Origin: Seison nebaliae
Taxonomy: Eukaryota
DNA: 37,963 bases
NCBI GenBank assembly: GCA_023231475.1
Contig: JALJEE010000063.1
Coordinates: 1 to 37,963, forward strand
Reading direction: 5' to 3'
Positions 441 through 33,200 of this stretch are shown here, piece after piece. A program made the position numbers and the translations under genes. The stretch's first letter is position 1, and the number at the start of each line of letters is the position of its first letter. The notes beneath the pieces were generated by a model that was not told where the DNA came from, did not search any database, and was given only the letters and a program-made list of their open reading frames with translations.

Positions 441-2382
441 CTAACAACTTAATCGGAATTTTGCGAATAATATTATCATAACATTCCGGTTGAAATAAAA
501 GAGATAGATACTTAATACATTAACCAAATAAGGAATGAACAGTAGACACTTTTTCACTATCTGATTCGTTTGATACTAAATGCACATTAATTTCTTATAG
601 TTTACTCAATAGTTATTTAACTTTCTCAATTGATATTTGCATCAAATAACTTATGTAACAACAGATGGACCAATATAATAAATTTATTGTTCGCCCATGC
701 CAAATATAAACGAAACTATAACAAATAAACCCAGCCAATAGAAAATTTGTGTTTCTCAACGGAATATATAATGTTCGTACGAGATATTCATATATTCCAA
801 CATCAAAATATCTGTTAATTATCAAAGATATCGAATATTAAGTTGATGAATAAAATAACTTCCACATACCTTTAGGTAAAGGTAAAAATGTGATACCAAA
901 TGGTAAAATTGGTATTTCTATTCCATCTACAACAGCAGAAATCAGTAAACCAATACCATAAAGATATAAATATTTTAATCCATATTCAATAGTACCCAAA
1001 TAATAAAAGAATCCATAATATCTGAAACCAATTCGATCGAATGTTGGAATAGTTGAATTATGAAAACCAGGATAAATTTCCTCTACATTTGATACAAACT
1101 CTACCAAACTAATCGGATAAATATACAGAGCCAATTGATACGTTACAAAGAGAATAATTCCAAAAAATAAAAAGTATTTCATTAGCTTAATTACTTTATT
1201 CATCATATTTGATTCTTTCGTTTCATTAGTTAAGAAATTCTGAAAATTTCCAACTTTCACTAATTTGAAATAATAAAGAATTTAACTGAATTATACCATC
1301 TCTGATAATCGACATACGGTCCATTAAACAGGTTCGGTAAATAATAGGAATATACTAAAAAATGAAAGAATGAATAAAATTGTTTTGTTCTTTCATCTTT
1401 ACATGATATTCGTTGAAATATAAATCCTGACATTCTCATCATCAAAAATCCTGAACAACTAATTTCCGGGATATCCCATCTTGATATTATTCCATCTTTG
1501 ACATCCCACTGAAAAATTAAAAGAATTAAAAAGGAACGTATTCGATAGAATAACTTGGAATAATTTTGATATCGTTTCTAATCCGCAAAGATCAGCCGCA
1601 ATTAGAACGAGCAAAAGAAATATATAGTACCAATATTTTCTTGTTAATTTCTCTAAAATTAAACAGCTAATCCAAAAATAAGCAATCGGTACAACAATCA
1701 ATAGTGTGAGGAATTTGGTATGTAACGAAAAGAAGATAAACGAGAATGTCAGAAAAACAGAAAAAGAAAGACGAATTTGATCTGAATTACAATTATGAAA
1801 GTTCATTTTTTCCCATTCTGGTAGTTTTATAGTAATTGGAAATACTTTAGTTGTTTTATTATCATCAATCGAAGTATATTCTGACTCAGCAACAAACTTC
1901 CCAAGTAACACATAATAGTTACAATAACCTCCATTATGACGCTTACTTAAAATTTTTTTCTTGTTCTTGAAAATTATTCACTTAAAACGATGTATAATTC
2001 ACAAAATAGTAACTTTGTTCTTTTGCCATTTAAATTCATCATAAATTATCATCAGAACAATGTACAAAAGAATATAAATTGTATGAGATGAATAAACTAT
2101 GGTCAATATGGTTGTTAGTTCTGGATCGACTTTCTACAATAAACTAATTCATTTTAAACTATATTTTTTACTTTTAACTTCCTCACTATGATGTTCGTCA
2201 AAAAAGTCTTTCCAAAAATATGTTCTTTTAATATCTACAAAATATAAATTTATATCACTATTATAATCATTATTATAAATAAAATAACTTTCAACATCAT
2301 CATAAATTAAGTAGAATAAAAATATAGATAATAAACCAAATACTACTGTGGCTATACGAAAATTAAGAGTACCGAACATCAT
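441..2382 (-). CDS. HHAT: MBOAT-family acyltransferase, Hedgehog acyltransferase (HHAT/rasp)/GUP1-like; multi-exon, 3' end uncertain
   Basis: Splicing GTT..AG introns (2178-2134, 1554-1509, 1286-1240, 859-812, 621-576; less certain 2013-1966 and 1928-1881) joins five ORF fragments. It restores the motifs YSYYLPNLFNGPYVDY, GMWKYFDVGIYEYL..LYIPL and FVYIWHG (catalytic His retained), with many hydrophobic segments. The simplest stop is TAG 443-441. Confidence 0.8.
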
Positions 2383-3096
2383 TATTCAAAATATCTTAAC
2401 CGTAATACATAAAAGATTTATCATTTGACGGTTATTAGTAAATTTTATCAAATATTTATCAACGAATAACCTTCTTATTCTTCCATTTAAATAAGAAGCA
2501 TCTGTTAAACTTTTATATTATAAATTTTTAAACTCTGAAAACGGGTTAATTTTATTAATCAACCTAACAACTAAATTGTTTTTACGAACTGTTCATTTCT
2601 AGACGACGAAAATTCATATTTCTATATAGAGGTGACGAAAAGACTAATAATACACACATAGGATGGTGGATTGTCCAACATGAATACAATGAGATGGGAA
2701 AATATAAGGGTACCGAAAACACCGTGATTCTAAAAAATAGAAAAAATGAAAATAGAAATGATGATCATGAAGAGTAATTGTCAGTCAAATATTTCAAACA
2801 TTCAGTGACTTACTCGAATTGGTTTTTTCTGGTCGGTTTCAAATAATTTTTAAACTTGCTAAAAAATTTCTGAGATTGTTGAAATATAGTTATTTTTGGC
2901 AAAATAGGTTCAGTGGTTTAAAAAAGATTTTATTTTATTTTTATAAAATATGTTAAAAGATGTTAGGACGAAAACAGTTAAATCTAAAATGAAAAAAAAA
3001 CTGTAAAAATGTCCACTAAATCAGAAATAATAAAAATAGAAAATTAATTTCATTACTTACCATTACAAGTACATTACAATTGTTAGTAATTCCAAA

Positions 3097-4647
3097 TTAG
3101 GCTCCTTTTTTAAAGAACTGAGCCATTTTAGTGATATTATCATCTGAACAGTCATTTACATCTATTTTATTTCCTTCCCAAAAACCGCCCATTACTGTTA
3201 CCTGTGCGGACCTTCGAGGTTCGACGAACTTATTCATCATTCGGTATTTTTGATGATTACCAAAACATTGGTGCTCCATAATAGATTGGACGTCTAAAAG
3301 AAATAAAGATTAATTAACAGAAGCAGACATAACATTAAATTAACGTGTTTTCCTTTTCAAAATATTAATGTCATCCTTTGCTGTATTTTCTGAACTGTAA
3401 ATTCGAATATATTTACTACCGTCTAATTTTCTATAAACGAGTTGTGTTTGATATGGAACTTTCTTATTATTCCATTTCTTTACATGATCATTGGAAATGT
3501 CTTTCAATTCAAATTCAAATGTTTCCTGTGATCCTGCCACAACATTTCCTTGTTCGATAATTCGAATGTTCTGTTCCTCGTTTGTGGCATCTAAAACACG
3601 AAAACCTTTTGGCATTCTAAATGTCGTCTCTACATTCGTTGCCAACTGTTCCACTTTCAACAGATCTGCAAAATCGTTAGATTCATCTTTTGGATCGAAC
3701 ATTCTTACATCGCCTTCTGTCAATAAAGCAACATGGCCCAAATCTTTTAGGTTGCAGTGACAATCAGCGACTGACATGAGATCGACGATAACTCCGCATT
3801 CTTTTGCCAATTCACCTAATTCTTGATAGAATTTTTTGTCACCACTTTTTCCCATTCCTATATTAGCCTCTCCATCCGTTAAAATGACCACACGAGAACC
3901 AGGTGAACGTGACGTATATCGAATAGCTGAATAAAGAGCCGGTCCCATCGCAGTACCACCACCACAACGAAGCGATCGAACTGCTTTCGATATTGCTTCA
4001 TAACTCTCCTTAACTGGTTTGGGCTCATTAAATTTATTAGAGAAGTCTGTCCATTTATTCTTGTCCATGATATTACCAACTTGCTGCTCTTTAGCGTTCG
4101 ATGTAAAATCACCGTAACAGATTACAGATGATTCGAATGTGATTAACGATAGTTTATTGTTGAGATATTTCTTGCTTTGAAGGTCGATAGCTTTCAAAGT
4201 CATTTTCTTAACCGACTCCAATAGACTGATATTTCTATGGGGAACGTGTTGACCCATACTTCCACTAATATCAATAACAAATACGACCATTATCGATTTT
4301 CCATTATTTTCTTCAATGGTAGAAGTAGTAGTTCCTGTAATTGTACCATCTTCCAATTTATATGTCATTGCTTTTGAACTATTACACAAGGACTTAATCT
4401 GATCTTCTGGATATTGTGTAATATCATTCAAATTATCACAGAATTCACATTTCCATTCATTCTTACCATCTTTCATCACCACATTATTCTTCGACAAATG
4501 AGATAGCACGGCACCACAGTCACAACGCACGATCTCACCCAAAGATAATGACCAATCATTTCTTATGTCATCATAATTAATTTGAATCAATTGAAAAGAG
4601 TTATCTTGTACATTTCCCGTATAAAAATGATCTCTTCCTGCGTGCAT
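3097..4647 (-). CDS. Sec23/24-type Zn finger + vWA protein, resembling the 'circularly permutated Ras protein 1-like' family without a Ras domain
   Basis: IVRCDCGAVLS...WKCEFC zinc finger and intact MIDAS-type motifs (VFVIDISGSM, GGTAMGPAL, ILTDGEANIG). One 51-nt intron 3344-3294 (GTTAAT..TAG) fuses ORF 3340..4647 in frame to ORF 3097..3279. Confidence 0.8.
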
Positions 4648-5423
4648 TCTCCAAAATCTTATTACTTATAAAAATATCTTTCTATTAAAAAGAATTAAAA
4701 ATCTTATAATCGTATTTCTTATATATCTTGTAAATAGAAAAAAGTGATGTAATTATACAATTTAGCTTACTATTGCGTAATTGGCGTGATTAATAATTTA
4801 TTTTTCAAATGTAAATGTAAAAATTGAAAAAAATACCAAATACTACACAATTTTTTCTACAAAAAGAATTTATTTTATTTAATATATACTACCTATTTTA
4901 TACATATCATTGCTATTTACATGTCACGTATGTTGTGTAATTTTATGATATATTGCAGAATGTTTTTCACTTCTTTTTGTTGAATATTTAACATTTTACA
5001 CTTCCTGATTTGTTGAATTATTAAAATTTAGTGTATTTTTGTTCAAGGACTATCTCATGAATGATGTCTTTTCTATTTTGTTACATTTATTAAGTTCACC
5101 CAAATGAAATTTATTGTTCTGGTTGTTGTAAATTCTTTTTGATAAGGAAATCCCAAAAAGAATCAAGACTAGTAATAAAAAAAGGAAATGTTAAATTTTA
5201 TTGACTTTTGGAAAATGTTATATAATATATAGTATATATTAATATATATTGGAATTGGATCCATTTAAACAATGTATAAAAATCAAAAATTTAAGTTATG
5301 AGTTTAAGACATGAATTTTTAGGATTATTTTCTTAGAATTTTTTTTCAGATTTGATGACATATATATTTACACGAACATATATTTGGCGTCTCTTTCGTA
5401 CCTGCTGAAGAAATTGAATTTAT

Positions 5424-5759
5424 TCAATAAACTGAAATACTGAAATAAATGAAGTTCAAGAAAGTAGTACTCCTTACGAGAAGTATATTTATCTTTAACA
5501 ATATTTCTACCACGATCTTGAAACACGATCTCTCCTTTTTGACATAAGCCCTTCTCTTGATCTCTCTCGCTTTCTCTTTCCTCATCTTCTTCTTTAGCTC
5601 TTCTAAGCCACCACCGCTACACCTCTCCCCCATTATTTTTAATTGCCCATAGTGATCGCATTCCGGGGAACAAAACCATTTAATGTCTCCCGTCAAGTCC
5701 TTTTTTGTCACCTGGACACAACCCCAATTATAATCATCATTAAAGACAAAAGGATCAAA
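5424..5759 (-). pseudogene. fragment with the C-terminal half of a PHD-like finger plus a basic tail, probably transposon-derived
   Basis: Frame reads ..DDYNWGCVQVTKKDLTGDIKWFCSPEC.., resembling the H-x2-CV...W-x-C-x2/3-C end of a PHD finger. The N-terminal Cys pairs are missing and the fragment abuts a transposase-like fragment. Confidence 0.35.
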
Positions 5760-5979
5760 AATAGAGGAACGGAAATACCAAAACTTTATTCTGAGGTGAA
5801 TTGATGGTCCAATTTTCTTCCACTAAATCTTCAATATATTTGATGATTTCAGGGGTTTGCTTTCCATGACGTCGACCTCCCCATGCAGAAGTTTCTTTGC
5901 CATCATTGAGTATCCAACTACGAGCTGTTGTAATTGGTACTTGATGAATTTTGCAAAGTTCTTTCCAATACATCACCAA
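5755..5979 (-). mobile_element. Tc1/IS630-like transposase N-terminal HTH relic
   Basis: WKELCKIHQVPITTARSWI....WGGRRHGKQTPEIIKYIEDLVEENWTI matches the HTH-GG.R..K-linker-second-helix pattern of IS630/Tc1-type transposases. No DDE domain follows. Confidence 0.55.
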
Positions 5980-6219
5980 GACAGATCCTCCATCAGTACA
6001 TCAAGATCTTCAGTATGCGACAGTTTTTAAGATTTATAAATTTTACAATATATAATTTAAATTATTATTATAATTTTATAAAAATAATACTTCTGCACAT
6101 GTTTTACTATTTTAAATATATTTTGACCAGGATGTCAAATTAAATTTTAAAAAAAATGGTTTTTTGAATATTAACATCTTACTTTATTTCATCTCAGAAA
6201 CTTAAGTTTATATTCTGCA

Positions 6220-6323
6220 AACTTGATTTTAAATTTTACGAACTTGAATTTTAATTATAGGAACTTGAATTATAATTTTATGAACTTTAATTTTAATTTT
6301 ATGAACTCGAATTTTCATTATAC
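6220..6323. repeat. degenerate 21-bp minisatellite, about 5 copies
   Basis: AACT(T/C) recurs at 6220, 6241, 6262, 6283 and 6304; consensus approximately GAACTTGAATTTTAATTTTAT. Confidence 0.85.
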
Positions 6324-6540
6324 ATATAGTATTGAACTAATTGAGGAATTGAGGAATTGGTTAATAGAAATAACACCTCGAAATTCTGGTCTTTAATGAG
6401 AAAAAAAGAATGAAGTACTTCGATTATTAGTATTGAAGAAGCCAAAGGTATCTGAAAGTAGTTGAGTCTATTCGCATAAAGCGAGGGCTTTTCGCCATCA
6501 ACAACGTATTTCCGTTCATAATCTAAACCTCCAATTTTTT

Positions 6541-6793
6541 CAAATTAAGCCATCCTGGGAAATCGAGATTAAGAGATAAAAGAACGAAGGAATTGAAGGT
6601 GACGAAAACATTTTCTCTTTTTGGAGCTATAGAAGTAAATGTCCAATTCTGGGGAAAACAGCGGCCGAAATATTCTCCAACTGCTGCCTGGGAAGCCACC
6701 TTTAATATTACGTAATCGAAGCTATGACGACGATGGAAACTAAAATTGACAGATTTAATGAAAGTAGTTTTCGTGACCTCAAACTCTGAATAA
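6541..6793 (+). mobile_element. hAT transposase C-terminal dimerisation-domain relic (not in the ORF track)
   Basis: Reads EIKR*KNEGIEGDENIFSFWSYRSKCPILGKTAAEIF / frameshift / PTAAWEATFNIT*SKL*RRWKLKLTDLMKVVFVTSN. This follows the hAT pattern E..Y....l.fW.....P.L...A...l..p.saa.Er.Fs......rR.rL....l..lvF...N, with three internal stops and one frameshift. Confidence 0.7.
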
Positions 6794-7401
6794 GAATACA
6801 CCTTGTGTTCTCTTTAAAAAGCTTGTAGTGTTTCACCCAGTGGATTTAAATAATTTTGAATCAATTCGGATGAACAAAACCATATGAACATGGGATTATC
6901 GGTTCTAGCGAACAAATTTCTCTAATTATGCATTCTCCAATCAGAAGAAGATTATTGAGGAGAAACTAACATCGAATTGGTAAAGAATTGGGCGACTGAA
7001 TTTAAATAAATTAAATTTAAGAATTCTTTATTTTCGCATTCTCATTGTGATATTTTCCCCTCATTCGCTAATGTGAAGAGAAAAGTAACAACTTAAGATC
7101 ATCGAAATCAAGAACTGAATGTGAGTTAATTAATTTATTTTTTCCAAATGCATCCATATATTGGAAGAAAGATTGTTTCTTGGCATTATCGTTTGTGTAA
7201 ATGAAGAGAACGGTAAATGGCTGAATGATAAATTTAAAAATGGATCCAAATAATACAAATAGAAATAAACTATTCTTATATAATTTGTAGAGTTTCCTCC
7301 GTTGGATCAGAGAGGAAGTTGAAGTAGATGAAGAAAAAAACTTTACAGAAAAAGATGTGTGTAAAACGGAAAACGAAAATGATTTGGGAATAGATGAAAA
7401 A

Positions 7402-10400
7402 TCAGAGACGTGTCCGATATTGTGAATTTGAAGAGATATTTGAAGAAGACTTTTTCTCGATTAGATGATAATATGTTGAACTTTCATTATTTTCAGTTGA
7501 ATTCATCAATTTCTTTTCGTTCAATTCCGTTCTCTCAATCTTTCGATATTCAACTTGACTGATGTCCATCGTCGATTGAGTGGAATTAGTGGATTGTGAT
7601 TTTTGTGATTCGTTTCGAACTTGAGAAGATGAATAAGAAGATAATGATTCTTTGGGTGTTAAAGAAATCGAAGGAGCTTCGGGGACATATATAGGAATAA
7701 TTCTTGTTTTTAATTGATCATTCGTCGTCCTCAATTTGGAGTTATTGTAAAAGTAATTTAGTGAACTATTATCATTATTCTTTCCTGGATTAATAGAGCG
7801 ATTAATTATTTCTTGTTTATTTGAAAATGTTTTATTAGAGGTTTCTATCGTTTCTTCATCGTGCGAAAACTTTGCAATAGGCGCCATATCTTTCCAAGGA
7901 GACATCACTAAATCACCATGACGACCAAGCGATCGAATGACATTGATATTCTTATAATCTTTATTGTTCATTAAATTGATCTTGTGAGTAGGAGAGACAG
8001 GTGATGAATGATGATTGTCATTACAACTGAGATTCGTCAAATATTTAGGAAACGTCGTCAATCGAGTAGGATCGATCGGATGTGATGGTGAATTTGTTCT
8101 CCTATCATCGATGTGTAATGATCCCAATCGGGCTGATGTCGAATTTAATAAACAATCAATATCATCGATTTTGTTTCGTTGATTAACTTGATAATCCAGA
8201 AGTTTTAAACGGCTGTCTAACAACCTTTCAGCTTTTTTCGATTTTTCAGTTCTAATTGGGAATTCTTTTAATTTCATGTCACTTTCTATTGGTAATTTCG
8301 ATTTTTCTTTATCATCATTCTCATAGATATTCTTCAATGGTTTCCTTTGTCGTTTAATCAATGAATTGATTCCCATTTGTGGAACATTATCATAATGAGA
8401 TAACGGTCTCAAATCATTATAACAGGATTTGGAAATAGTTGAATGACTTCGATTAATTTTCTTCGGAGACGTATCATCTCGATCGAACGTATTTGTTATT
8501 GTTTTATTGAGGTTCTGTGATTCTACTACATCTTCTTCATTATCGATCGTTGTCCTCGGCAATCGCCGACGTAATAATGATGAAGATGTTGTTGATGATG
8601 AGACAATATCACTCTCTTCAATTAGTAAACTATTTTTTTTGTCGAAAATGATTTGATCTGAATTCATATTCATTTCCAAACTCTCAGAATTATATCGATT
8701 GTGATTCATCTGAAATTTCGATTTTTCATTTTTGTTCGCTGATGCAAGAACCGAATGTTTCCGTCGTAAATTTGTTTTGATGGAATTCATTAACGAATCT
8801 TTTCTCGAAGTTTTTCCTCGTTTGTTGTTCGATGATAAATTCTTATTTCTTGATGATCGTTCATTTGATAGGATACAATTTTCAGTTAAATTATGTTCGG
8901 AAATGGATGTTGGAACAATGTCGGAAATATTTGAACGATCAAATGATAAATTGTTTATGTCGCCAGTACTGCCAATATATTGGTTGACTGAAGCACTAAT
9001 CATATCAGTTTCGGTGAGAATACTTTCCGTATCATTATCAGTGTGTTGTGAAGAAGAATTTTTATTCTTATTATCGATATTCTGAATCTTTTCAATATTT
9101 CCATGCACCGTATGATAATTGGGCAAACCGGAAATAAATGTAAATTGTTCATCATTTCCGTTAAACGACGTAATCATCGTACGATCTTCCACCATCAAAT
9201 TAGTCATCGATCTCTTCCCACCAATTAGTGTTTTTGGTGAAATCGATTCATCTTTATTATAATTTCTCGTTGAAATGGATATATCATTTGACAATGAACT
9301 AAGAATTGAATCCGATTCACTTTCAGTTGTATTGACAGTGGAGATACTTCGAATATCAGCATCGATTGTATTAATATCAATAATTGGTTGGTATGCTTTC
9401 GAATTCGTTATTTTATTGATCTCCTCAGTTACATTCGTGGACAAACTTCTTTTCTTCTTTTCACTTTCACTTATTCTTCTTTCATTCATTTCTTTACCGT
9501 CATTAGTCGTCTTTATTTGATCAACATGATGATGATCATCATCATCCGTTTCTTTATTATTATCCTTATTATCAGTTCTATTAGCCATTTTATCATCTTC
9601 AATCGATTTCAATCTCTCTTGTCGGAGGACATCATCGTCAATGATCGATCCGAATGGAATTTGTGGTCGTTCGTCTTTAATGGCAACTTTGTCGATCGAC
9701 AAGTTATTCTTCTCAACTTTCCGCAAAGTTCTCTGAAATATTCTCATAATTTCATCATCAGTTATAAGTCGTTCGTTCAATATCTCATTTTCCATCTCCG
9801 TGAAAAATGTGAGTGCCATATCTTGATCTACTTTTATACGTTCTAAATTCCAATTTTAATATAAAATAATTAAAATAAATAATAACTTGAGAATAATTTA
9901 ATGAGACAACATCCGAAAATATTGATGACGTTAGTTCCGTAAAAGAAGAGAACATCCCAAAATCGGAATAATAATGATATAGGAACCTGAAACAAATAAA
10001 AAACAAAATGAATATCAACATTGTTCAATATCCGATTATTGATGATTATAACTTTATTGATGAATAATTTCAAATACCATTGAGTCGTACAGAAAGTTGG
10101 TTTAATATTGAAACGGACAAGATTCTTGTAAATTCGAGGCGACAGTTTTGCCAACATTGATTCAAAATGATCGCTATAACGGAATAGTTGTGGGAAGCTG
10201 GGACAAAAGAATCCTGAAAAAGAAGAATTATTATAAAAAAACTTTGAAAATTCAAAAAAAAAAAGGGAACCATGCATTGCCAAATTAGCTTTCGTCATAA
10301 TTTGAGATAATGCCCAAAATGAATTCTGATTTTTACTTCGATTAGATTAACATGAAATTATAAAGAGGAACTTCTTCATTATGTAAGATTAAGAGAAGAG

Positions 10401-13931: not shown

Positions 13932-16032
13932 ATGCTTCAGAACAATAAATTTCGTCTAGTTGCCTTTGGAACAGTAATTGGTGGCAGTCTCATTACTTAT
14001 CATAATAGAAATAATCAAACATTTTCTTCCATCGGAAGATTAGTTCGAACAGCAACTATTGGAATCACATTAGAACTGGATTACCAAAAAACAAAATATA
14101 TTTCACGAAATCTGAGTAAAGAAGTTTCTTTCATTTTTCTTTGATTTTCCAACGAGATAAAAAATTTGAAATTTGTTTGAAAAAATTTTTTTTTAAAATT
14201 TGTAACAAAATCAGAAATCGGATGAATTATTCGAAGAATACTTTCAACGAGCAGGAACACGAGTTCGAGATACATGCATAAGAAATGGAGGAGTCTATAT
14301 AAAACTTGGACAAGGCCTCGCCACATTCAACCAAATGTTTCCACGAACTTTCATTTCAACATTAAGCCAATTAAATGATCGAGCTTTTCAACAAACCCCA
14401 AATAAAGTTTTCCATTTCTTAACTTATTCTTCTTCATTTTTCAGATTGATCAATTGTTTAGGAAACAATTCAATTGTTCACCGACTGATCTATTTCAAGA
14501 ATGGAATGACAAACCGATCGCTGCTGCTTCATTGGCTCAAGTCTATGAAGCGACGACGTTTAAGGACGAAAAAGTAGCGGTGAAAGTTTTGGAAATTAAA
14601 ATTTAGAATGAAAAAAATTATTTGAAATATTTTTGAGGTTCAATATTTCGATTTATTGGAACGATTTCCGTCGGATATGAAAACAGTGGAATTATTATTA
14701 AAATTCATAGAATATGTCCATCCGAAATTTGGATTTTCTTGGGTCGTCAATGTTTAAATTGAATTCGATGGGATAATTAAAATAATTTCTATTTGGAAGA
14801 TAATTCGAAGGAAATTGGAATTGGAAATGGATTTTCTCAATGAAGGAAACAATTGTGAACGTTGTGGTCGAGAATTGGGACATCTTCATTATTTGAGAGT
14901 ACCAAAAATATATTGGAATTATAGTACAAAAGTTGAGAGGATTTTCGACTTTTTAAAATTTTTTTTTGTTTTCAGAGAATTCTGACGATGGAATATATTG
15001 ATGGAATTAAAATCGATGATGTGCATATGTTAAAGAAAGAGGATTTCTCATTAAAAGATGTTAAGATTCCAATTTCCAATTAATTAACGATGTTTGACGA
15101 TTAGATTGGAGAGAAGATCGTACGAATTTTTGGAGAACAGATTTTTTCTACAGGCAATGTTCACGCAGATCCACATCCTGGTAATGGTTCTTATCTTTTT
15201 TTTATTATTAACTTTTTGTCGATTAAATAAAATTCTTAAAAATTTATTTTCATTCATTTTTTCTTTCCTAAAATTTATTTGAATTTTTGTTCTTAAAAGT
15301 TTTTGTGCGAAGAAATGAAGATCATCGAACCGAAATCGTTTTATTGGATCATGGATTATACGAGCACATCAATGAAACGTTGAGAATTGATCTTTGTCAT
15401 TTTTGGAAATCGATTGTTGAAAGAGATTTAGTGGAAATGGAAAAATATTCGAGGAAATTAGGAGTCGAAGGTTTTTTTACTTTTAAGAATTTATGGAAAT
15501 CAATTAAAAAAACTTTGAAGAATATCGATTATTTGCTGAAACGTTATTTATGAGACCGTTATATCTGGATAATAAATCGAAAATAATGAATGATATGAAC
15601 AAAATGACAAAAGAAGAAATTGAATTAGTGAAGATGCAAGCACAAGAAAATTTCGATATTATTATGAATCGTCTATTAAAAGTGATGCCATTGGAATTAT
15701 TATTAGTATTTAGAAATTTGAATATTGTTCGTTCGATAGTTCGAAAGTATGATGCAGGAATTAATCGTCATATAGAATTGGGGAAAATGTTTAAAATTTT
15801 TCTTCGAATTTCCTTTTCACATTCTCTTTCCAGTGCCATAAATAGTTTAACTGATAATGTATCGCCTTATTTTTGGGATAGACTACGACAATTGATCAAT
15901 ATTCAACGATATTATTGTTTGTTATACATCGATTGGATTCGAGTGAAAATGATGAGTAATCTCATTTTCTTAATGTTCAAATTCAATTTAATTTCGAAAG
16001 AATTATATAGATTGTGGATAAGTATTCTATAA
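13932..16032 (+). CDS. ADCK5: ABC1/aarF (UbiB) atypical kinase, ADCK5-like; 10 exons
   Basis: NGGVYIKLGQGL, PIAAASLAQVY, VAVKVQY, EMDFLNEGNNCERC, HADPHPGNVFVR, LLDHGLY and YRLFAETLFMRP are restored by introns 14124-14214, 14407-14444, 14586-14637, 14752-14799, 14932-14975, 15060-15104, 15187-15299, 15471-15520 and 15789-15833. KLGQGL favours ADCK5 over ADCK1. Confidence 0.88.
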
Positions 16033-16139
16033 GTTCGAAGAAGAATATTATTATTTTCTCAAATTTCATCTTTAATAATCACCCACAAATTTTTAATTTA
16101 TATTCATTCTGATAATTTTACCATTAAATTTTCCATGAA

Positions 16140-17756
16140 ATGTTTTCAATTAAAATTTCTCTTGTAGATTTTTCTCTTTTGCAAATGAAGAAAGTTAGGA
16201 ATCTACAATCACTTCTTAAAGAAGTCATCAAAAATAATGGTCCGATAACAATTTCTAGTTATATGAAACAATGTTTATTTCATCCAACATTAGTTTCCAT
16301 CTATTTCTTTCTTCTATTTCTCTCACTAATGCTTTGATATCTAAGGGATTCTATTCGAGTCAGAAAGAAGTTTTTGGAAAACATTTTATAACTTCACCGG
16401 AATTAAATTCAATTTTTGGAGAAGTTTCCACTTATTTCGTTGTATCTTCTTTCTTCTATTTTTAGATTGTCAGTGTTTATTTAGCAAATGAGTATAAGAA
16501 GTTGAATGGGAAGGCAGCAGATGAAATTCATTTAATTGAATTGGGACCAGGTCGAGGAGTTCTGATGAATGATATCCTCAAAACACTTCCCCCTCTTATT
16601 GGAAGAAATGGGGATATTAATGTTCATTTGGTGGAGAAGAGTGGGAATTTACAAAATGTTCAAAAGAAATTGTTTTCAAAAGTTCTTCCACTTAAAAACT
16701 TTTCATTTTTCCCACTTATTCATTGATAGTTAGAGAATGGGAATATATCACTTCGTAATGTTAAATCAATTAATTGGTATGAAGATGTAAAAGGTCTTCC
16801 CAATTTCAAATCTGATCAGTTAAATCGTTTAATTCTCGTTGTGGCAAATGAATATTTAGATGCATTACCAATAAATATAATTATCGTTTATAATATAATT
16901 TTATAAAATTATTTTTTTTTAAATTTTTTTATTAGAAAGATGATAATAAATGGAATGAACTTGCAATTGGTCTAAATAGAAAGTCGGAAAAATTGGAATT
17001 TGTACAAAATCGAAAAATCTCTTTATCCATACCTCAATATTTCCAGGTGAATTCAATTTAGTTTTAACCATTTTCATATTTGTAAAGTTTATTGAGAATA
17101 TGAAAGAGAAGAAGTATATAGAAATAATGAGTGAATCTTTGGGAATGATAGAGGAACTGATAAAGAAATGTTTCATTCATTCAAATATCCGTTCAAGTTG
17201 TTTGTTTATCGATTATGGACACGATGGTGATAAAGTCGATACATTTCGAGTTTGTTCATTCGTTTTCCTATTGATTCTAACTATTTTTTATGTCTCTTAT
17301 TCATGTTTTCTATTTGGTAATTCGATTCGATATGGGGAACAACAACGATAACAGGCGTATCATGAAAATAAACAAATAAGTCCTTTAGAAAAATGCGGCG
17401 AATGCGACTTGACGGCTGATGTGGATTTCTCACAAATTCGTCAATTGATTCTTCAGAACACCAAAAAAGGTTTTTGTGCGTTTTCATTCGACTTGAACGT
17501 CCCACAATTTTGAGCAGTTGTTACTAATGTGGAAGTTTCCAATCTTGAATCACAAAAGGATTTTCTTTGTCGATTCGGTCTAATCGATCGAACGAGAATT
17601 TTAATGAGAGAAGAGACATCGAAGAAAAAAAAGAATTCTCTATTGAATACAATTGAAACGTTCCTTCATCCGGATAAGATGGGAACTCGATTTAAAATAT
17701 TCACATTTCGAAGTCGGATCAAATCACTAAATCGACAATCGACTAGTGAAAATTAA
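16140..17756 (+). CDS. NDUFAF7: mitochondrial protein arginine methyltransferase / complex I assembly factor NDUFAF7 (MidA); 8 exons, start uncertain
   Basis: GPITISSYMKQCLFHP..GFY, FITSPELNSIFGE, IELGPGRGVLMNDIL, ANEYLDALP, IDYGH, DLTADVDF, MGTRFK. Introns 16293-16345, 16424-16465, 16682-16729, 16886-16935, 17047-17087, 17250-17354 and 17470-17517. Confidence 0.92.
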
Positions 17757-20922: not shown

Positions 20923-20949
20923 GTTGTTGTTGTTGTTGTTGTTGTTGTT
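20923..20949. repeat. (GTT)9 microsatellite
   Basis: Nine perfect GTT units about 400 bp upstream of the ATG at 21357. Confidence 0.95.
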
Positions 20950-21356: not shown

Positions 21357-23218
21357 ATGGAGAATGTTTTCTGTTCTAATAAATTTCGCAAGAAACGATC
21401 CGATTTATTGATTTTTCTCATTCTATTCAATCTTTCTTATTCGAAACGGATTCATCAACGATCACTTTGTGTCGATCTTCAACAACCGTCTAATGAAATC
21501 GAATTTAAATCACAACAAATTCATTTGACATGTACGAAAGATGAAATAATTTATATAATCTCAGAACAATATGAGGTGGTATCAACTGATACCATAAGTT
21601 TATGTGAAAGTGATAGAAGTGAAGTTCAATGTCGTCAAAATGTTTCTGAATTCTCAAACGTATGTAATGGAGTCCGACATCGATGTCTGTTACATTTGCG
21701 ATCAGTATTCCTTCATTCTTGTTTCGTTCAAGCGAATGTTGTCCGAATTCAATACGAATGTATCAAAGACAAGAATGAAATGAACATGTGCAAGTTTAGT
21801 GAAAGGAAATTATCGGCAATCAACGAAACGATTATCTTGACAGGATACTCATCCATCAAACACAAATCTTGTTCTTGTCATTTGAGTTTGAGTGAAAGAT
21901 TTGATGGCGATTTATTGAGAGTGATGCAATTCCGTACAGACGAGCCCAATCTCCATGAGATTGATGAGATGTTCAATAATGAAGAATCATATCAAATTCA
22001 ATCAGCATTGAAACATTTGAGTATCACCCAAAATAGAAAGATTTGTCAGAAAGTTTCCCATTTGACATTACACACATCTTCCAACAACCGAACGATATCG
22101 ATGTGTGGAAGACTTTATGCACAACGGCCATGGATTAATTTGCAATTTAATCATTTCATTCAAAACAGTCGTATGAAAGATTTTCGTTTGACAATCCACA
22201 ACATTTCAAACAATTCATTTGACCTATTTCTATTAATACGTCTTCTTAATGGTTAGAGATTGCATGTAGATTCTCATTTGAAATTGACATGAATTCATCA
22301 ACAACCATATTTGTGGTCTATTAGAAATTTGGATTGATAGATCTTATTAAAATGTTTCTCCAATAAATCTAGAAATTAATCTAATGACAATTCTTTTCTT
22401 TATTCGGAACAGATCGTACACAAATCAAATTGACTTGTGCTCCGTCAATATTGAAGAAAGAATCAGATTATTTCAAATCGATGCATCATATCAGATCGTT
22501 GAGATTGAAGCATAACGAAAATATGTTACAAGCAGAAATTATCGATCTACCACTGCCAATCACTAAAAATAAATCGTTGACGGAGAACCGAATTATTTTC
22601 TCTGAAGAGAATATGAGCACAGAATATTTACTAATTGCCTCGCTTGTTTGTTTGTTGTTGATCATTGTATTTCTCATATATGCAATCTTTCAAAATAATT
22701 CATGGTTATGTCTCAATGAGAAGGATGGGACAAATAACAAGAAAGAACAAAATTATAAAAATAATTTGATGTCAAATGAAGAAGGATTCAAATTACTCAA
22801 TTATACGACAACAGACCACACTGAATCCAATCCAACCAGTCATTATTCTTATCAACAAATTCCTGTAACATTATCTCGATGTCATGAATATGAGAGACCG
22901 TCCTTGGGCGATTATGCGATAACATCAAATCGATTAGGTCTTCCATTTCCTTTGCAGAATGTGGAGGATGCTGAGAGATATGCAACTTTCGCAATTCAAA
23001 ACATCTTCTCTTTGTCGAACGAATGTCCATCTCGTCACTATACGATCAATTCAGTTTTGAGAAATCGAGAAAATGTTTATGAGAAGTCAATCCATTCAAA
23101 GATACTTTATTCGAAGCCTCGTCATTTTTGGAAGATTGTAAAGAGATATCGATTGAATCGTTTAAAAAAACGTCAGGTAACAAATTTAAGAAATTTATTT
23201 CATTTATATAAAAGATAA
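21357..23218 (+). CDS. type I membrane protein with a SUEL/galactose-rhamnose lectin-like domain and a second Cys-containing (possibly CUB-like) ectodomain
   Basis: Signal-like LLIFLILFNLSYS. LTC..DEIIYIISEQY..C..C..VS..CNG..C.L..C..VRIQYEC is the SUEL cysteine pattern. There is one TM segment (YLLIASLVCLLLIIVFLIYAIF) and a Tyr-rich tail. Intron 22252-22412 joins the two ORFs in frame, and AATAAA follows the stop. Confidence 0.72.
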
Positions 23219-23474
23219 ATAAAAAGATTTATTTAAAAATTTTTCAATTTCGTTTCGAAATCGATGAAATTAATTGTTCTTCTGATTACTTCATTTCATC
23301 TACACTGTCACCTGATAATTTCATTAATTGTATAATAAGTTGAATAGAATTTACTTTTCTCTTCTCTGAAATTATCGTTTGATGAATAATTTGGATGTTA
23401 TTATAAAATGGAATTGTTCTTGACTATTGTTGACTATTTGTTCTTGAATAAAAGTCGAATGAATTCAGATTTCG

Positions 23475-25514: not shown

Positions 25515-26511
25515 TATTCCATTTGATTAAAAGAATTTTGAAGAAGAATGAGAATCAGAATAAATTTCTATTTAGAAAAGATGCAGAAAATCAGTGACGT
25601 CTTTCACATGAGGAGGATAAGGACATAAATGACGAAAAATTTATATGATTTACCCAAAAATTCTCCTGTAAACAATTCGGAAGATTCTAATGAACTTTCT
25701 GCCTTCATCTACACATCAAAAAGAAAATAAAAGATGCAATTCATGTCAACAATATGACAGAATTGAAGTAAATAAAATTTCCATGCCAAATACTAAACAT
25801 TGGATGGAGGATGTTACGGAAATATGCGAAGGAGCTTATTAGTTATTAGACCAATTAGTCATTATTTTGAATTTTTTAAACTGAAAGTGCCAGTCAATTC
25901 CAAATTATACTTTTCGAAGTTGTCTCCGAATGAATATTGTACGGAATATTCTTAAAAATATTTTTTCCCCTCATCCACTCCCATCAACCAACGAATATGT
26001 CATTCGTTAGTCTCTAATTCAAATATTTATAATTGTTTAATTAAGTCTAAATGAAGATTGAGTTAGCAAGGTAGCTTATCAAACGAATTAGCTTCGAAAG
26101 TAAATGAGTTTTGTTTATTTCTCAATAAAAAAAATGTTGTTGACATCATGAATATCTGACAATATCTGTGAGAGTCGTCTCATGAATCTAGTACGAAAAT
26201 TTTCGAACTGTTTGGAGAAGGATTGCATATTATGTATATGCAAATTAATTATTGAATCAGTGAAATTTTTCGCTAGGAATACTTATAAACATTTATATAT
26301 ATTCTCTTATACTTATGAAAACGATTCAAGAATGTTCAATTCATTCACGTCAGTCTAATTTACTAATCAAGAAGTTTAATTAGAATTAGTGTCTTTTTAA
26401 GGGTTTGTCTGATGGAATATTGAATGAAGAAATTATTTAATGAACTGATTTATTCTAAGCCGTTTATATCCTAAAAAGGATGGTAATGATGATGATGAAT
26501 ATGGGAAAGAT

Positions 26512-27582
26512 TTAATGATTGGATAAACGAATTACGTCTAATCGATTCTTTAATGCTTCGATGTATGATGGATGAAAATGATTAAAATCATGCACATCTT
26601 CTAAATATGTTGCATGTTTGATCTCATTCAGCCAACTGATGCTCAATCGCATATCTAAATTATGTCCTTGTAATGACTTGGCGATAGCTTCTGATGAGAA
26701 TAATGATTCATTCCTTAAAAGTTCATCTGAATTTGGTCGTCTTTTCGGATCGACGGTAAGACATTCTTTTACTAATTGTACGAACTGATTGGAGACATGA
26801 GGACTTTCTATTAATTTTCCTATTCTTCTTCTGATAGACTGCTCTATATTTTCTAAACTAAATCTTTCTATTCGATAAGCACCATGTCTCATCGTTAGAT
26901 AACATAATAATGCTCCATAACTAAAGATATCGGAATTATATGTATAGACATTGTTGCTGGAGGATTTTCGTTGACCTTTATAACAAGCAACTTCACAAAT
27001 TTCAGGAGCAATATATCCATTGGGAAAATAGGCCGTTTTCGCATAACCATTTCGCAAGTAGATCGCTTCTGTCAAACCGCCAATACAAATGTTACCATTA
27101 AATGTAACAAAAATACTATGTGGTGTAAGATTCCTGTGAACTATTCGTTGTGTTCGCATATAATCGATACCGGCCAATATTTGAATGGACCAGATACGAA
27201 CAGTTCTTTCAGTGAAGACTCTTTGTTTCCTCAAATAATTCAAATCTCCATAAACTGGAAGTTGAAATAAACATATCGTCGATGGTCCCAATTCGACAGT
27301 GTTCGAAAGCGATAATATAAATGGAGAATCGGCCAGACGACGATGCATCTCAACTAAACGATGACAACGTAATTGTTGCTTCTTTGCATAAAGAATCTTT
27401 GCTGCATTAGTATCCAGTTGGCGATAATGATGGATATGTTGTGCGTAGAATAATTTGGGTGTTCTACGAACAGAAACAAAGTATCTATCATCTAATTGTT
27501 CATTCGGTTCGAATTTAACTACAATCTTCACCGAATGTGAATCGTACGTTTGCACAGACATGGCATGGTTAGGTGAATTCAT
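26512..27582 (-). CDS. Ser/Thr protein kinase-fold protein, probable pseudokinase (AGC-like), single exon
   Basis: SPFILSL, YGDL..L, FTE..VR.W..QI..GIDY, IVHRNLTPHSIF, ICIGGL, GYIAPE, SDIFSYG, L..DPKRRP. The fold motifs are present, but the catalytic HRD, the catalytic-loop K/N and DFG are replaced. Confidence 0.85.
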   Translation of the reverse strand: MNSPNHAMSVQTYDSHSVKIVVKFEPNEQLDDRYFVSVRRTPKLFYAQHIHHYRQLDTNAAKILYAKKQQLRCHRLVEMHRRLADSPFILSLSNTVELGPSTICLFQLPVYGDLNYLRKQRVFTERTVRIWSIQILAGIDYMRTQRIVHRNLTPHSIFVTFNGNICIGGLTEAIYLRNGYAKTAYFPNGYIAPEICEVACYKGQRKSSSNNVYTYNSDIFSYGALLCYLTMRHGAYRIERFSLENIEQSIRRRIGKLIESPHVSNQFVQLVKECLTVDPKRRPNSDELLRNESLFSSEAIAKSLQGHNLDMRLSISWLNEIKHATYLEDVHDFNHFHPSYIEALKNRLDVIRLSNH

Positions 27583-28603
27583 AAAAATGAGTCTTTCTTG
27601 ATATGATAATTGATATGAGAGAAAAGAATGTGAAATTTAAATAAAATAAAAATTGAGAAAAAAAATGTCCTTTCAAATAAATTGAGATGATGCGCATCTG
27701 CTCATCATTTCATTTAATTCGAATTTTCTTCGTCTTTTTCAATATTTTGCGCGAATGCATTTCTACCATTTCCCATCAAATATGAACTAGTCATTAATTG
27801 AGACGAAATTGTACGTACTTTGTACGAAATTCTGAGATTTATTAAAAAGGAAAAGAGACTGTCAACATCAGATTATCGTCCACGTTATGAAAACTTACCA
27901 CTTTTACTCCCATTCTTTTCACAACAATTACTCCACTCCTCTTTTCTTTATTCGTGTCATGGAAGATAATTAAAGACATCAAAATTCTATCTCGATGATT
28001 ATTATCAGATAAAGTGTTAATTAAAAATTTATATCTTTTCATAAACATTTCCTATTACTACTACTACTCCCATTAGTGCTGTACTCTTTATAATGAATTA
28101 TCTCATAAATATGATAGAATATCATCAAATAAAAGAAATAATCGAAAATATTTGCAATGCTTATAATAAACACAAGCCATTAATAACAGATAAACAGACA
28201 ATTAATAAGACAAATTAATAAAGTATATTTGATATAATAGGTGGGAGAATAATCATCCATTAAATCAATGAGAAATATAGGTAAACTGAAAGAAGAATTT
28301 TAAGTTTTTTAATGAAACTAAAACTTGTAATGAATGATCGGTTATCATCTTATTTATTTGAGACTAACTAACTTGTCTAGAGAAAACTCGGTAATTGAGA
28401 ATATTTAAAATGAATTCCCATCTTATAATGTTGACAAATAGATCATCTAACAAAAATTGTCGAATCGATGGCTGAAATTTTCTGCTTAGAAATTCTCGTT
28501 GAAATTTTTCGTTAATATTCTCCTTTCAACTTCTTCGCTTGATTGTTCTCTATTTACATAAATAATCTATATCTGAGGATTGTTGGAAGAGTTTTGGCTC
28601 GAG

Positions 28604-30035
28604 ATGGAGAAGTTTTTTGAAAAATATGTGAATTGGAAAATGGTTATAGGAATTGGTCTTCCCAGTTATTTTTTCCTTTTTTTTTTTATTAGGATAAAAG
28701 ATAATTCGTTAATTTGCTTTTCCAAAACTTTTCTCTAAAAAAAAACCTACGACAGTTTCCTCAGCATTTGTATTACATCGATTCTATTTTGCCGGAGGAC
28801 GATGTATTTCGTCAAAGAAATTCTCTAATGACAACATAATTATTACTGGAGCAAATTGTGGAATTGGAGAAAAGACAGCACTGGATTTAGTGAAGCGCGG
28901 TGCACGTGTTATTCTCGCCTGTCGTGATGTGACATCCGGAAAGAAAGCATTAGATAAAATTCGACAGAATGTCGCCGATATCCATCGCTCGACTGTGATG
29001 CATCTCGATTTGGCTAATTTCGATTCTGTAAGAAATTTTGTCGATAAATATGTTGAATTGGAAGGAGATAGACATCTACATTCAATCATTTGCAATGCCG
29101 GTTAAAAAAATTAATTAAAAAAAGAAAAAATTTTTGAAATCATTTTTCACTTAAAAATTTACATCATGAAGTCTTTCCGGATTTTCTTTACTGTGAAAGG
29201 AAAAAAAAAGTTGATTTCTTCCCGACATTATTACCTTCTAACATTCCTTATTCATTTTCCTTCGATCGTTCGAAGAGAACGAGAATGTTGAGGAGAAAAT
29301 TTGAAAATTTATTACAATATTTTTCCGTTTGATTTAGGCGTTATGAGACCACCATTTCAATTGACAGTTGATGGTAACGAACAACAATTTCAAACGAATC
29401 ATCTGTCACATTTTCTTTTGGTAAATCGACTTTTGGAGTTAGTGGTAGCGAAGAATAAGGAAGATTATACCGACAGTTATTGCCGTATTTTATTGTTATC
29501 GTCAATCGGTTACAAAAGTTACATTGAATATGATTTCTAATGGAATAATGATGTTGAGACAGGAGGGAAGAAGGATGAGCTTCATGAATTGAGAGAAGAA
29601 ATCTATGAACCGAGATCAGCATATTGTTCAAGTAAACTGGCAAATGTTTATCATGCAAAAGCTTTAGCTTATTATGCTAATGAACACCAATTGCCAATTG
29701 AAGTATGTTCAATTCATCCAGGTATTGTCCTAAGTAATTTGGGGAGGAATATGTTGGCGACTTGGAGAGAAAGAGGATTATTCTACTTTTATTCTCGACT
29801 TCTACTCATATCTCCTATTGCATTGGTTTGTTTAAAGACGACAACAGAAGGCTCTCAAACTTCAATACATTGTGCCACTGTTGACAAACTGAAACAAGGC
29901 GCTTATTACACCGATTGTTCAGTGACTGCCACTTTACCGATAGCCAATGATATTGAAAGCCGTAACAATCTTATAAAATATTCGGAGAAATTAACAAAAT
30001 CTTCATTTAGTCAACTACATGAATTATTTACATAA
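28604..30035 (+). CDS. retinol dehydrogenase 11/12/13-like short-chain dehydrogenase/reductase; 4 exons, start uncertain
   Basis: YFAGGRC, IIITGANCGIG, RGARVILACRD, LDLA.FDSVR.F, NAGVM, QFQTNHLSHFLL, YCSSKLAN (YxxxK), IHPGIV. Introns 28665-28755, 29101-29337 and 29518-29562; AATAAA at 30062. Confidence 0.9.
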
Positions 30036-30266
30036 CATTCTTCTCCTGATAGATATAAGTCAATAAAAAAGTTCTTGAGACAACAAAAAGAAGAAAAAGT
30101 TTTTTTTTAAATTTATTTTTGAAGAATGAATATTGCAATGATGTAGATGTATATACTACTAGTACACCAGTAATTTGATGATGAAATAATAAAAAAAAAT
30201 GTTGAGAAAGGAAGTATATGTATATTAATATTTTATGAGTAGAAAAAATAATAAAAAAAAAGAATC

Positions 30267-33200
30267 TCATATATTTTCCCAAAATATTTCCTTCTCAAAA
30301 ATATTTTCCTTAACAATTTCAAAATGAAAAGTGGTAAGGCTTCTCCCGCTCTTTTTTCCCCTTCAGAACGCAGAAAAGAAGAAAAAAGTTCTGTTTTTTT
30401 TTACGAACAAAAAACCATTGTAAAAACCGGGTAGTCTTATGTTTTTAACTAATACTAACTTCCTTCTCACAATCCACGTCCAGACAATAGTAATAATAAA
30501 TTCGGAATAATTCGAAGTAATTTGGATATTGTCTTAAAATCTTCACGATAATTGCAAGCAACTTTAATTGGGAGGGAAGGATGATGGAATAATAGAAGAA
30601 GATTAATTGGTAATTCTTTAAAAAAAATACAACTTGTTTCAATGACGTAAAATTAGAAAGATGTTTCAAATATCTTGAAAGGGGGACAAATTGTACATGA
30701 ATTGTTGTCCCATCGGACACAAAGTCATTCAATCAACAACAAATAAGAAAAGAATAGAATTAACCTGATCCACAATAATTCGTCATTAAAAATGACTAAA
30801 CTCTCCAATTCTTTCTCTTCCGAATGTTTCTTCAACTTCTTTTCCACATTCTCAAAGGAACTAATCAGATCATCATCATTATCTGAATCGTAATTGTCTG
30901 ATAGTTTTGTACTTGTCGTTTGGACATTTGAATTGCTTGTAGAAATGTGATCTTGTGCGAATGTTTGGAGGAATTGGACCTCTTCATCTGTCGTTAAGAC
31001 ATCTAAGAAACTGTGTAGAATTGTCGATGATAGAAATTGTAAATTATAGAAAATGAATGAGAACTATCGGAAAACTGGACCAAATGAATTGGGACCGATC
31101 ATTGGTAGGAGGTAAGTGGTAAAGAACGATAATCTGAGTGACGGATGAATGTAATTGGAGAAGAATCTGAAAATTAGATTATAAAAATATTTACAAGATA
31201 ATTCCTTCAAAGGAGACGTTTCCATCAATTGGAGATGTTGTTCACCATATTCAAAAGATGTAATGAAATGATTTAAGAATTGGATAGTTGTTGTTCTCGT
31301 TGATTTTGTTGTTGATTTCTTGATAATATTATCGACCAATGATAAATAATTGAAAAGAAGATATTCCTTTTCCAAATAACTAATTATCATTGATGATTGT
31401 TTGGCTATTGAGAGAGTATAAGAATATTGATGAATTGTTCGTTCATCAAGAAATTGAAGGAGATTAATATAAATGATAGACATCCAAACAATATAAGAAT
31501 CACTAATTTTCGATGATATCGAATTAATATTGAAATTCAATAATTTCTCTAATGTATTTAATAATCCATAAATATTCTCTTCTTCGATCCAATAGCCTAA
31601 ATGCTTCAATAATTCCTTCCCAATTGACATCTGAGCCAATTGATTCATCTTCTTTCCCTCTTGAGACATGTCATACATTTTAATCATTTTCACAAAAATT
31701 GATCGTTCTTCATAAATGTCTGATGAGAACAAACGAATAAGTTGTAAGAACAGATCATAATTTTCATTTTTTTCCATTCTGTAACAAATTGTTTCACCAA
31801 AATTATTAAGAATTTCATTGTTAATATGACGATAATATTGATGGAATGTTTTCCTTTCTTCCTGAATTCTTTCATTTAGTCGACTCAAAGTCTCATGTTC
31901 GGAATGAAGATTGTGAAGGAGAAGAAAAATAAATAATTGAATATCCCAATCAAACTCATTTACCCCATAACGATTGAAATATAAAAGAATCGTTCCGTAA
32001 TTCTCTGTAAGAGTAAACACGATATCTGTTAAATCCGAACCAGAAAGAAGATGAAAACAATCTATTTTCAAATCTTCAATAGAAAGTATATCAAATAAAA
32101 TGAATTGTAAACAAATCATCGAAATAATTTTCCTGTATAATTCATCAGATGTCGACAGACTCACCATATCCACAAGTGAATTTAACGTATCAGAAATTTC
32201 ATCTTTGAACGATTTTGACTCATTTGTTGAATAATTTTGATTTGTTGGATGCCAATATTGGAAATAGATCGATAACATCGACATAATATCCAGCGAAAAT
32301 TTCCGAATATGATTTCCCTTAACGAATGTGGTTAAGAGAACGTACAAATGAAAATAATCTGATTTTGATATGGAATTTTGTTCCGATAAATGTTTCAATA
32401 AATTTTGGAATATTCTAATGTTGTACTTTTCGGGAAATCCTTCAATATTTTCATATAATATTCTATCAAATATCGAAAGATTAATAAGAGCAATATTTTC
32501 TTTCACTTTTTCATTTGTTAATATCAAATCATTATCATTATTTTCATTTGAATTTCCTATTTTTTTCAAATTATCATTATTTTCATTTGAATTTCCTATT
32601 TTTTTCAAATTCTCATCATTTTCATTTTCACTCGATTTTTCTGATATGACAACGTTTGGAATGGTATCTGTAAAGTCAATATCATCATCATCATCGTCAT
32701 CATTATCAGATGAAGATAATTCACTTAAATGATTTTCTATGTGATCGATTTCTTGATTGTCATTATCTTTATCATCAATTAATCGAGATAATTTGTAAAT
32801 TATATCATTCTTATCATCGATTGCCATCGATTTCCAAGAGACATTACTTTGGAGAATGAAAAGATAATTGGAACATATATTATTGATATCATTCATGGAA
32901 CTGTCATTTGCTGTCAAAATGAGGAACATGAAAAGAATTTGAACATTCTTATTTAATCGATCAATTATCATTCCATCATCAAAAAGATTATTCATAAAGA
33001 TCTTCCACAAATTATTTATAAGAAAACATTCATTCGTTTTCGTCGAGATAATTGATGAGAATTGAACTTTCTCTAATCGATCAGCCAATTCACGCCATTG
33101 TTTCGTGATGATGAGATTAGTTTGCTGATTCTTCTTCGAATAAGTCAACAATTTATTATTCCATTCATGATTTTGTTCGGTGGAGATTTTCCTGAAAAGG

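Follow-up and report, generated by a model that had tools for sequence, protein, structure and literature searches.

A GTT donor pattern, probably undescribed for an intron-rich animal, in genes of the rotifer Seison nebaliae

Two major classes of donors, as we call the 5′ splice sites of introns, are distinguished in the available sections of Parker et al., the U6-type NN/GURAG and the U5-type AG/GUNNN class (PMC11732430, PMC10581693; R, purine; Y, pyrimidine). A near-universal U at the third intron position (+3) is already known in Entamoeba, where the U1 small nuclear RNA (snRNA) has co-evolved with the donors; the accessible preprint text gives ACAAAC for Entamoeba and ACGUAC for Mastigamoeba as precedents of such U1 co-evolution (bioRxiv 2022.06.08.495308). 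We analysed contig JALJEE010000063.1 of the seisonid rotifer Seison nebaliae (Rotifera, Seisonidea), a stretch of 37,963 nt that we refer to in its entirety as the window and whose GC content is 26–33% along its whole length. Among 31 introns inferred in eight multi-exon genes, 30 start with GTT, one with GTG (17047), and none with GTA or GTC. This GTT donor pattern is confirmed, and the donors probably represent an undescribed code in an intron-rich animal, fitting neither major donor class.

Like the GUUUGU(U) donors of Entamoeba, those of Seison combine a near-universal +3U with an AT-rich genome and a host-associated lineage that has lost genes. In Entamoeba, however, the signal is a rigid hexamer (88–90% GUUUGU, +5G above 96%) that is accompanied by few introns and fixed branch points (bioRxiv 10.1101/2022.06.08.495308, available text), whereas in Seison, an animal, GTTTGT occurs at one and +5G at two of the 31 donors, the genes are intron-rich, and information lies in the exon end. 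A weak intron side, a strong purine-rich exon end and the apparent absence of METTL16 resemble the AG/GUNNN class, but none of the 31 donors reads GURAG at +1 to +5, three have AG at −2 and −1, most have −1A, and a fixed +3U stands in place of +4U. A third system is that of shifted-register human 5′ splice sites, reportedly described by Roca and Krainer in 2009. Seison donors share with these −1A, +1G and the placement of +3 opposite U1 A7, but the human sites are rare and are backed by +6G and its neighbours, which in Seison are at background (PMC4856993, available sections).

The intron set comprises three tiers of evidence: 13 introns placed by outgroup-profile tests (tier A), eight whose junctions we checked by aligning them with homologues of known structure (tier B), and ten introns given by frame or annotation (tier C). 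GTT is the donor of 13 of 13 introns in tier A and of 20 of 21 in tiers A and B together. Across the window, T follows 41% of GTs (also 41% in non-coding DNA), against which 30 of 31 donors yields p = 6 × 10−11; inside these introns T follows GT in 27 of 48 cases, and against that frequency p is 5 × 10−7. Fisher's test of donors versus non-donor GTs (287 of 706 being GTT) gave p = 8 × 10−11. Relative to background, +3 holds 0.88 bit and +4 to +8 about 0, while −1, −2 and −3 hold 0.23, 0.32 and 0.21 bit, respectively. Both classical G positions are lost, +5G and −1G (7 of 31, expected 5.5) being at background level, whereas A is enriched at the exon end (19 at −1, expected 10.9, p = 0.003; 22 at −2, expected 11.6, p = 0.0002) and T is under-represented at −1 and −3 (two −3T, expected 8.7). 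The sole GTG donor sits after a CAG exon end, and +4 is A in 14, T in 11, C in five and G in one of the donors. All 31 introns are GT-AG, and none begins with GTATCC, the U12-type donor motif, as is expected of U2-type (major) spliceosomal introns; their removal at these junctions is called for by frame and homology. The initial annotation had proposed a GTT donor code for this DNA: its 11 listed donors are all correct by coordinate and strand, position 576 being the acceptor end of intron 621-576, and its count of 31 GTT among 32 introns, with one GTG and no GTA in eight genes, became 30 of 31 in our re-derived set. Its description of variable positions from +4 onward, rare +5G and frequent AA exon ends (15 of 31) held as well.

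The pattern was recovered independently of the annotation. For each of the 13 tier A introns, we scored 401–786 open placements, regardless of their ends, against profiles of 55 ADCK and 76 TBC proteins, all from other organisms. Among the GY-AG placements, GTT-AG ranked first for all 13 introns and trailed the highest-scoring placement, whatever its ends, by no more than 3 bits (rank 2–47), and GTT placements outscored GTA or GTG rivals at 14116, 14574, 14580 and 15181 by 12–22 bits. Three introns that are in frame and free of stops scored 12–15 bits higher spliced than retained. We also ran a neutral parser that draws on a codon model and on the composition and length of introns, without a term for +3; its length and composition terms derive from the same introns. 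At a lower penalty it recovered nine of nine ADCK5, four of four USP6NL-like and the one VWA/Sec23-like intron; in NDUFAF7 and the dehydrogenase gene some ends moved, yet the donors were GTT except at 17047. Four read sets compared with 14220-16890 consist of DNA-like contigs and gave chance matches of ~20 nt, without joints or substantial coverage, and thus speak neither for nor against the junctions.

Comparison with other eukaryotes bears on the age of these introns. A metagenome scan gave 80 loci, mostly intronless, of which seven, none assigned to rotifers, were examined for introns. Six of the nine Seison ADCK5 intron positions match introns of four of these loci by codon and phase, with the following donors there: GTAAGG (position 14407, locus L012), GTTAAC (14586, L023), GTAACG (14752, L013), GTAAAA (14932, L010), GTAAAT (15471, L012) and GTTGGT (15789, L012). 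Because six of nine positions are shared and four of the six donors elsewhere are GTA, old introns were most likely converted in place and were not inserted by mobile elements, so that the Seison donors most likely changed at ancient intron positions. Positions found in the comparison loci and not in Seison are amino acids 289 and 317, and in L012 38, 309 and 433. L012, an animal-like ADCK5 of 27% GC, has four GTA and two GTT among six donors, both GTT carrying +5G and +6T; because it keeps four of six GTA, low GC alone does not appear to yield the GTT pattern, although one locus is a thin control. The L012 gene also has two alternative homologous exon blocks (2460-2803 and 2908-3097), representing a tandem duplication or mutually exclusive exons.

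ADCK5 (plus strand), whose name rests on its nearest named homologues, has nine introns within 524 codons. Outgroup profiles place the introns at 14407..14444 (GTTTTC...CAG, 38 nt), 14752..14799 (GTTTAA...AAG, 48 nt), 14932..14975 (GTTGAG...CAG, 44 nt), 15060..15104 (GTTAAG...TAG, 45 nt) and 15471..15520 (GTTTTT...AAG, 50 nt). The intron at 14124..14214 (GTTTCT...CAG, 91 nt) scored 12 bits above the GTA rival at 14116, and that at 14586..14637 (GTTTTG...GAG, 52 nt) 15–22 bits above GTG at 14580 and GTA at 14574. For 15187..15299 (GTTCTT...AAG, 113 nt), the score was 588.6 bits compared to 571.7 for the rival donor; a near-standard ctg|GTAATG lies 6 nt upstream of this donor, and its use would remove catalytic-loop residues. 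The intron at 15789..15833 (GTTTAA...CAG, 45 nt), in frame and without a stop, scored 588.6 bits spliced and 576.5 bits retained. In the USP6NL-like TBC gene (minus strand), the intron at 9843..9886 (GTTATT...TAG, 44 nt) is the top GY-AG placement by outgroup profile and agrees with NCBI protein P0002, and that at 10326..10371 (GTTCCT...CAG, 46 nt) is the sole open GY-AG placement. Two others, in frame and without stops, scored 320.9 bits spliced, namely 9987..10052 (GTTATA...CAG, 66 nt; retained 305.8 bits) and 10214..10270 (GTTCCC...CAG, 57 nt; retained 305.7 bits).

The NDUFAF7 introns (plus strand) rest on NCBI protein P0001 and on alignment to the structures 5ZTZ and 1ZKD: 16293..16345 (GTTTCC...AAG, 53 nt), 16424..16465 (GTTTCC...TAG, 42 nt), 16682..16729 (GTTCTT...TAG, 48 nt, in a weakly conserved region), 16886..16935 (GTTTAT...TAG, 50 nt), 17250..17354 (GTTTGT...CAG, 105 nt) and 17470..17517 (GTTTTT...CAG, 48 nt). 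The exception to GTT, 17047..17087 (cag|GTGAAT...AAG, 41 nt), is given by P0001, the alignment and the neutral parse alike. In the HHAT-like MBOAT gene (minus strand), frame and NCBI protein P0087 define 1240..1286 (GTTAAA...CAG, 47 nt) and 1509..1554 (GTTATT...CAG, 46 nt); retention would introduce a frameshift at 576..621 (gaa|GTTAAA...TAG, 46 nt) and a stop at 1966..2013 (GTTACT...AAG, 48 nt) and 2134..2178 (GTTAAA...TAG, 45 nt), all three agreeing with P0087. Retention of 812..859 (GTTATT...CAG, 48 nt) would likewise introduce a stop, and its junction aligns gaplessly to human HHAT. The VWA/Sec23-like intron at 3294..3344 (minus strand, GTTAAT...TAG, 51 nt) is the sole open GY-AG option and is found by the neutral parse. 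In the short-chain dehydrogenase gene (plus strand), the exon aligns with SDR structures as far as the donor of 29101..29337 (GTTAAA...TAG, 237 nt), which is also set by frame; 29518..29562 (GTTACA...CAG, 45 nt) is set by frame, and its alternative donor at 29509 is likewise GTT. Frame alone defines the introns of the two unnamed genes, 22252..22412 in a membrane-protein gene (plus strand, GTTAGA...CAG, 161 nt; a GTC alternative at 22240 is open too) and 31011..31064 after a 5-kb exon (minus strand, GTTCTC...CAG, 54 nt; the sole option below 70 nt). The base at +4 varied by gene, a post hoc observation: +4A occurs in six of six HHAT-like donors compared to two of 16 in ADCK5 and NDUFAF7, where GTTT accounts for 11 of 16.

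Three spliced NCBI proteins are encoded in the window (SNEBB_009181, SNEBB_009183 and SNEBB_009185), and their 31 mappable introns, taken at face value, have 28 GTT, two GTG and one GTA donors. The annotated GTA intron, 1402-1355 in the HHAT-like gene, was rejected: its 13 codons match the MBOAT profile gaplessly (E 1.8 × 10−4), and the protein as annotated gives no match to Pfam. Because the removed sequence matches this profile, the intron is very likely false. Also rejected were 15943-16010 (GTG) and 16033-16167 (GTT), which lie in a linker fusing two genes. SNEBB_009185 merges, across 15943-16185 and through these two linker introns, ADCK5 (stop 16032) with NDUFAF7 (start 16185), each half being a complete known protein. 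These three were left out of the count, together with 2288-2235 and 445-403, which are annotated with GTT but lack homologue support, an intron beside a 5′ micro-exon in the HHAT-like model, which could not be mapped, and three further, ambiguous introns near 30764, 30633 and 30459, the last two with GTA rivals 3–4 nt away. Intronless genes for a rhodopsin-type receptor and a kinase adjoin intron-dense genes with one intron per 100–200 nt; the intron-poor stretches (23475-25526, 26512-27636, 31064-36037 and 7402-9842) include exons of 2.4 and 5 kb. Short, overlapping, coding-looking open frames without a Pfam match lie at 5368-6000 and 6299-6813 on the minus strand.

The introns are short, with a median length of 48 nt and 26 of 31 within 38–66 nt. 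Acceptors are relaxed, with CAG in 15, TAG in nine, AAG in six and GAG in one, so that a purine stands at acceptor −3 in seven of 31 (1966, 14637, 14799, 15299, 15520, 16345 and 17087). We found no branch-point excess (YTRAY in 13 of 31 introns compared to 14.6 in shuffles) and no polypyrimidine excess (pyrimidines 0.62 near the AG, 0.59 mid-intron), both comparisons having low power in short AT-rich introns. Because an AG follows 38–66 nt downstream of 221 of 310 exonic GTTs, GTT and AG motifs alone are insufficient to define introns. Real introns are set apart by composition, with less G (0.09 versus 0.17) and more T (0.46 versus 0.29) than follows AR|GTT at 46 exonic decoy sites.

The Seison donors fit a standard U1 poorly. 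Using the standard U1 5′ end given in the accessible part of PMC4856993, mean duplex energies were −1.8 kcal/mol for the donors, −0.8 for 287 decoy GTTs, −3.0 for 265 unused GTRs and −14.0 for the consensus; the slight edge over decoys on the intron side may merely reflect AT-rich intron interiors. An open in-frame GTR rival lies within 30 nt in four of 31 introns, and in three of the four it binds U1 better. At +3 no GTC occurs among 30 donors, although C makes up ~20% of intron pyrimidines (p about 0.001–0.003), and a position that takes U and not C fits an A partner better than G44 of U6. An Rfam search of the window gave no matches, there being no snRNA gene in these 38 kb.

We propose that (A)AR|GTT introns are read by a co-evolved U1, then held by U5, with a minimal U6 helix, and we put the chances of this reading at about even. 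Ordinary short GT-AG introns would have had their start signal shifted to (A)AR|GTT, and the short, U-rich, G-poor intron would be defined as a unit. A U1 with a changed 5′ end would read AR|GUU, with A opposite +3 and perhaps U opposite −1; the modal AA|GUUA would pair without interruption over six positions with a U1 altered at two sites. After transfer, the site would be held chiefly by U5 loop 1 on the purine-rich exon end, as in METTL16 mutants, in which METTL16 loss favours donors with strong U5 pairing and also changes which 3′ sites are used (PMC11732430, available sections). U6 may be unmethylated and its helix minimal, METTL16 not being found in the published table described below, and a weak U6 helix would loosen 3′ site choice according to the link drawn in the same sections. 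An altered guide RNA would then likely be reading the intron starts, an unusual condition for an animal.

The initial annotation had suggested a rewired donor recognition relying more on U5 pairing and intron length, through variant U1 or U6 snRNA or altered factors of the U1C, LUC7 or SNRNP27 type. The U1 misfit, the U5-type score given below and the short U-rich introns agree with the first part; because the published BUSCO table (supplement of PMC12256650) lists SNRNP27 as complete, its loss is not supported. Among the proteins that it had singled out for survey, PRP8 is complete, and METTL16 is recorded as missing in Seison but as present in each of the other 24 of the 25 species. ZMAT2, SMU1 and MFAP1 are complete as well. 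In that sheet, the 40 splicing-related rows are complete for Seison in 31 cases, fragmented in three (SYF2, BUD13 and FAM32A) and missing in six. SPF45 and LSm2 are, with METTL16, missing in Seison only; SNRNP40 is also missing in one bdelloid, ZMAT5 in both acanthocephalans and USB1 in most species. No U1-specific protein occurs among the rows of the sheet found by term search.

Several points weigh against our proposal. Because that table lacks 356 of 954 genes for Seison, the normally essential LSm2 among them, single BUSCO misses are weak evidence and may be detection failures. METTL16 loss is associated with +4U and few introns, unlike Seison with its mixed +4, intron-rich genes and complete SNRNP27. 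The higher score obtained with a variant U1 is circular, since that variant was picked to match the donors; five further lineages whose donors changed have kept a standard U1; and A-rich exon ends suit U5 or a changed U1 equally. The neutral parse failed on the hydrophobic HHAT-like gene, where it called 10–19 introns, 2–4 of them GTA. Finally, the sample is one 38-kb contig with predicted junctions, and ten of its 31 introns are placed by frame or annotation only.

As an alternative that we regard as doubtful, U1 pairing could be largely bypassed or U1 lost, with U5 loop 1 and U6 choosing donors at the stage of the tri-snRNP (small nuclear ribonucleoprotein) in the absence of METTL16; the +3U would then be read either by a protein or by U6 position 44, in the latter case through a G-U wobble pair or an altered nucleotide. 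The exon end fits the U-rich U5 loop, and a U5-type score of this loop against −1 to −3 was the best single discriminator (2.10 for donors versus 1.24 for decoys, p < 1 × 10−5). In the available sections of PMC11732430, +3 faces U6 G44, with which purines pair weakly, and human splicing is possible without U1 in some settings, while Roy and Bowser point to possibly better pairing of GUUUGU with ACAGA (bioRxiv 2022.06.08.495308, available text); METTL16 being listed as missing points the same way. However, no GTC donors occur although C should pair with G44, and the U6 ACAGA box beyond +3 gave no gain (2.35 versus 2.33 in decoys). It is unlikely, in our estimate, that Seison has abandoned U1 base-pairing genome-wide, with GTT, U5 exon-end pairing, length and U-richness sufficing without N6-methyladenosine in U6 and a loosened acceptor as a side effect.

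A standard U1 in a register shifted by +1, pairing with −1A, +1G, +3U and +4A, would require no snRNA change and is established in human cells (PMC4856993, available sections), but we consider it distinctly improbable. It predicts the −1A/G (26 of 31), the +3U and the mild +4A excess (p = 0.08), whereas its other predictions fail (−2 C/U 8 of 31, +6G 3 of 31, +7U 10 of 31), and its score was no better than that of decoy GTTs (4.81 versus 4.68, p = 0.29). Relaxed selection, under which GT alone would be needed and the T at +3 would be the product of drift in an AT-rich genome whose introns are U-rich, is largely refuted and has a very small probability: the frequency of T after GT inside the introns, a TpA odds of 0.73 in non-coding DNA and the background composition from +4 onward favour it, but the donors exceed that T frequency, +4 to +8 show background mixing where +3 does not, and the 27%-GC L012 retains its GTA donors. 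TpA is depleted window-wide, with GTA and CTA at ~0.6 of expectation across codon boundaries. The scarcity of GTA in coding DNA (167 versus 239) was considered as cryptic-donor avoidance and rejected; because CTA is equally depleted (ratios 0.62 versus 0.61 and 0.47 versus 0.61), it reflects general TpA avoidance. An artefact of mis-called boundaries or an introner burst of mobile-element copies with GTT ends is the least credible explanation, for although the annotation has errors and the junctions are predicted, the 13 outgroup tests agree, the six ADCK5 positions shared with other eukaryotes are not lineage-specific, the listed introns show no obvious mutual similarity, and the lengths agree with 39 gaps derived from Seison transcripts in the opening part of PMC8351084 supplement 2 (median 50 nt, 31 of 39 within 38–66 nt, p = 0.49).

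GTT donors form a sizeable minority in bdelloid rotifers and nematodes. A literature search, with subscription journals and bioRxiv supplements outside its reach, turned up nothing published about donor motifs in Seison or in rotifers. In its available text the Seison genome paper mentions introns solely for gene compactness, its supplement giving no search hits, and the accessible text and supplement of the Seison lamin paper contain no splice-site sequences. The available parts of the comparative surveys PMC11347168 and PMC10599564 have no matches to Adineta or GTT, and the main text of PMC12256650 contains neither 'splic' nor 'intron'. The version of the +3U signal in an intron-rich animal is thus probably undescribed.

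Gene finders trained on other animals mis-annotate the Seison genome, with one false GTA intron and one fusion in the three models checked. Animal donor signals are regarded as nearly fixed in two classes, and the Seison donors belong to neither. Transformed donors have so far been found mainly in intron-poor microbes, with more rigid signals, whereas in Seison the signal has moved and weakened at what are most likely old positions. With public monogonont, bdelloid and acanthocephalan genomes and a METTL16 miss in Seison only, this system offers a natural experiment on which of U1, U5 and U6 sets the donor code, and on how the co-evolution of the machinery with thousands of sites is ordered.

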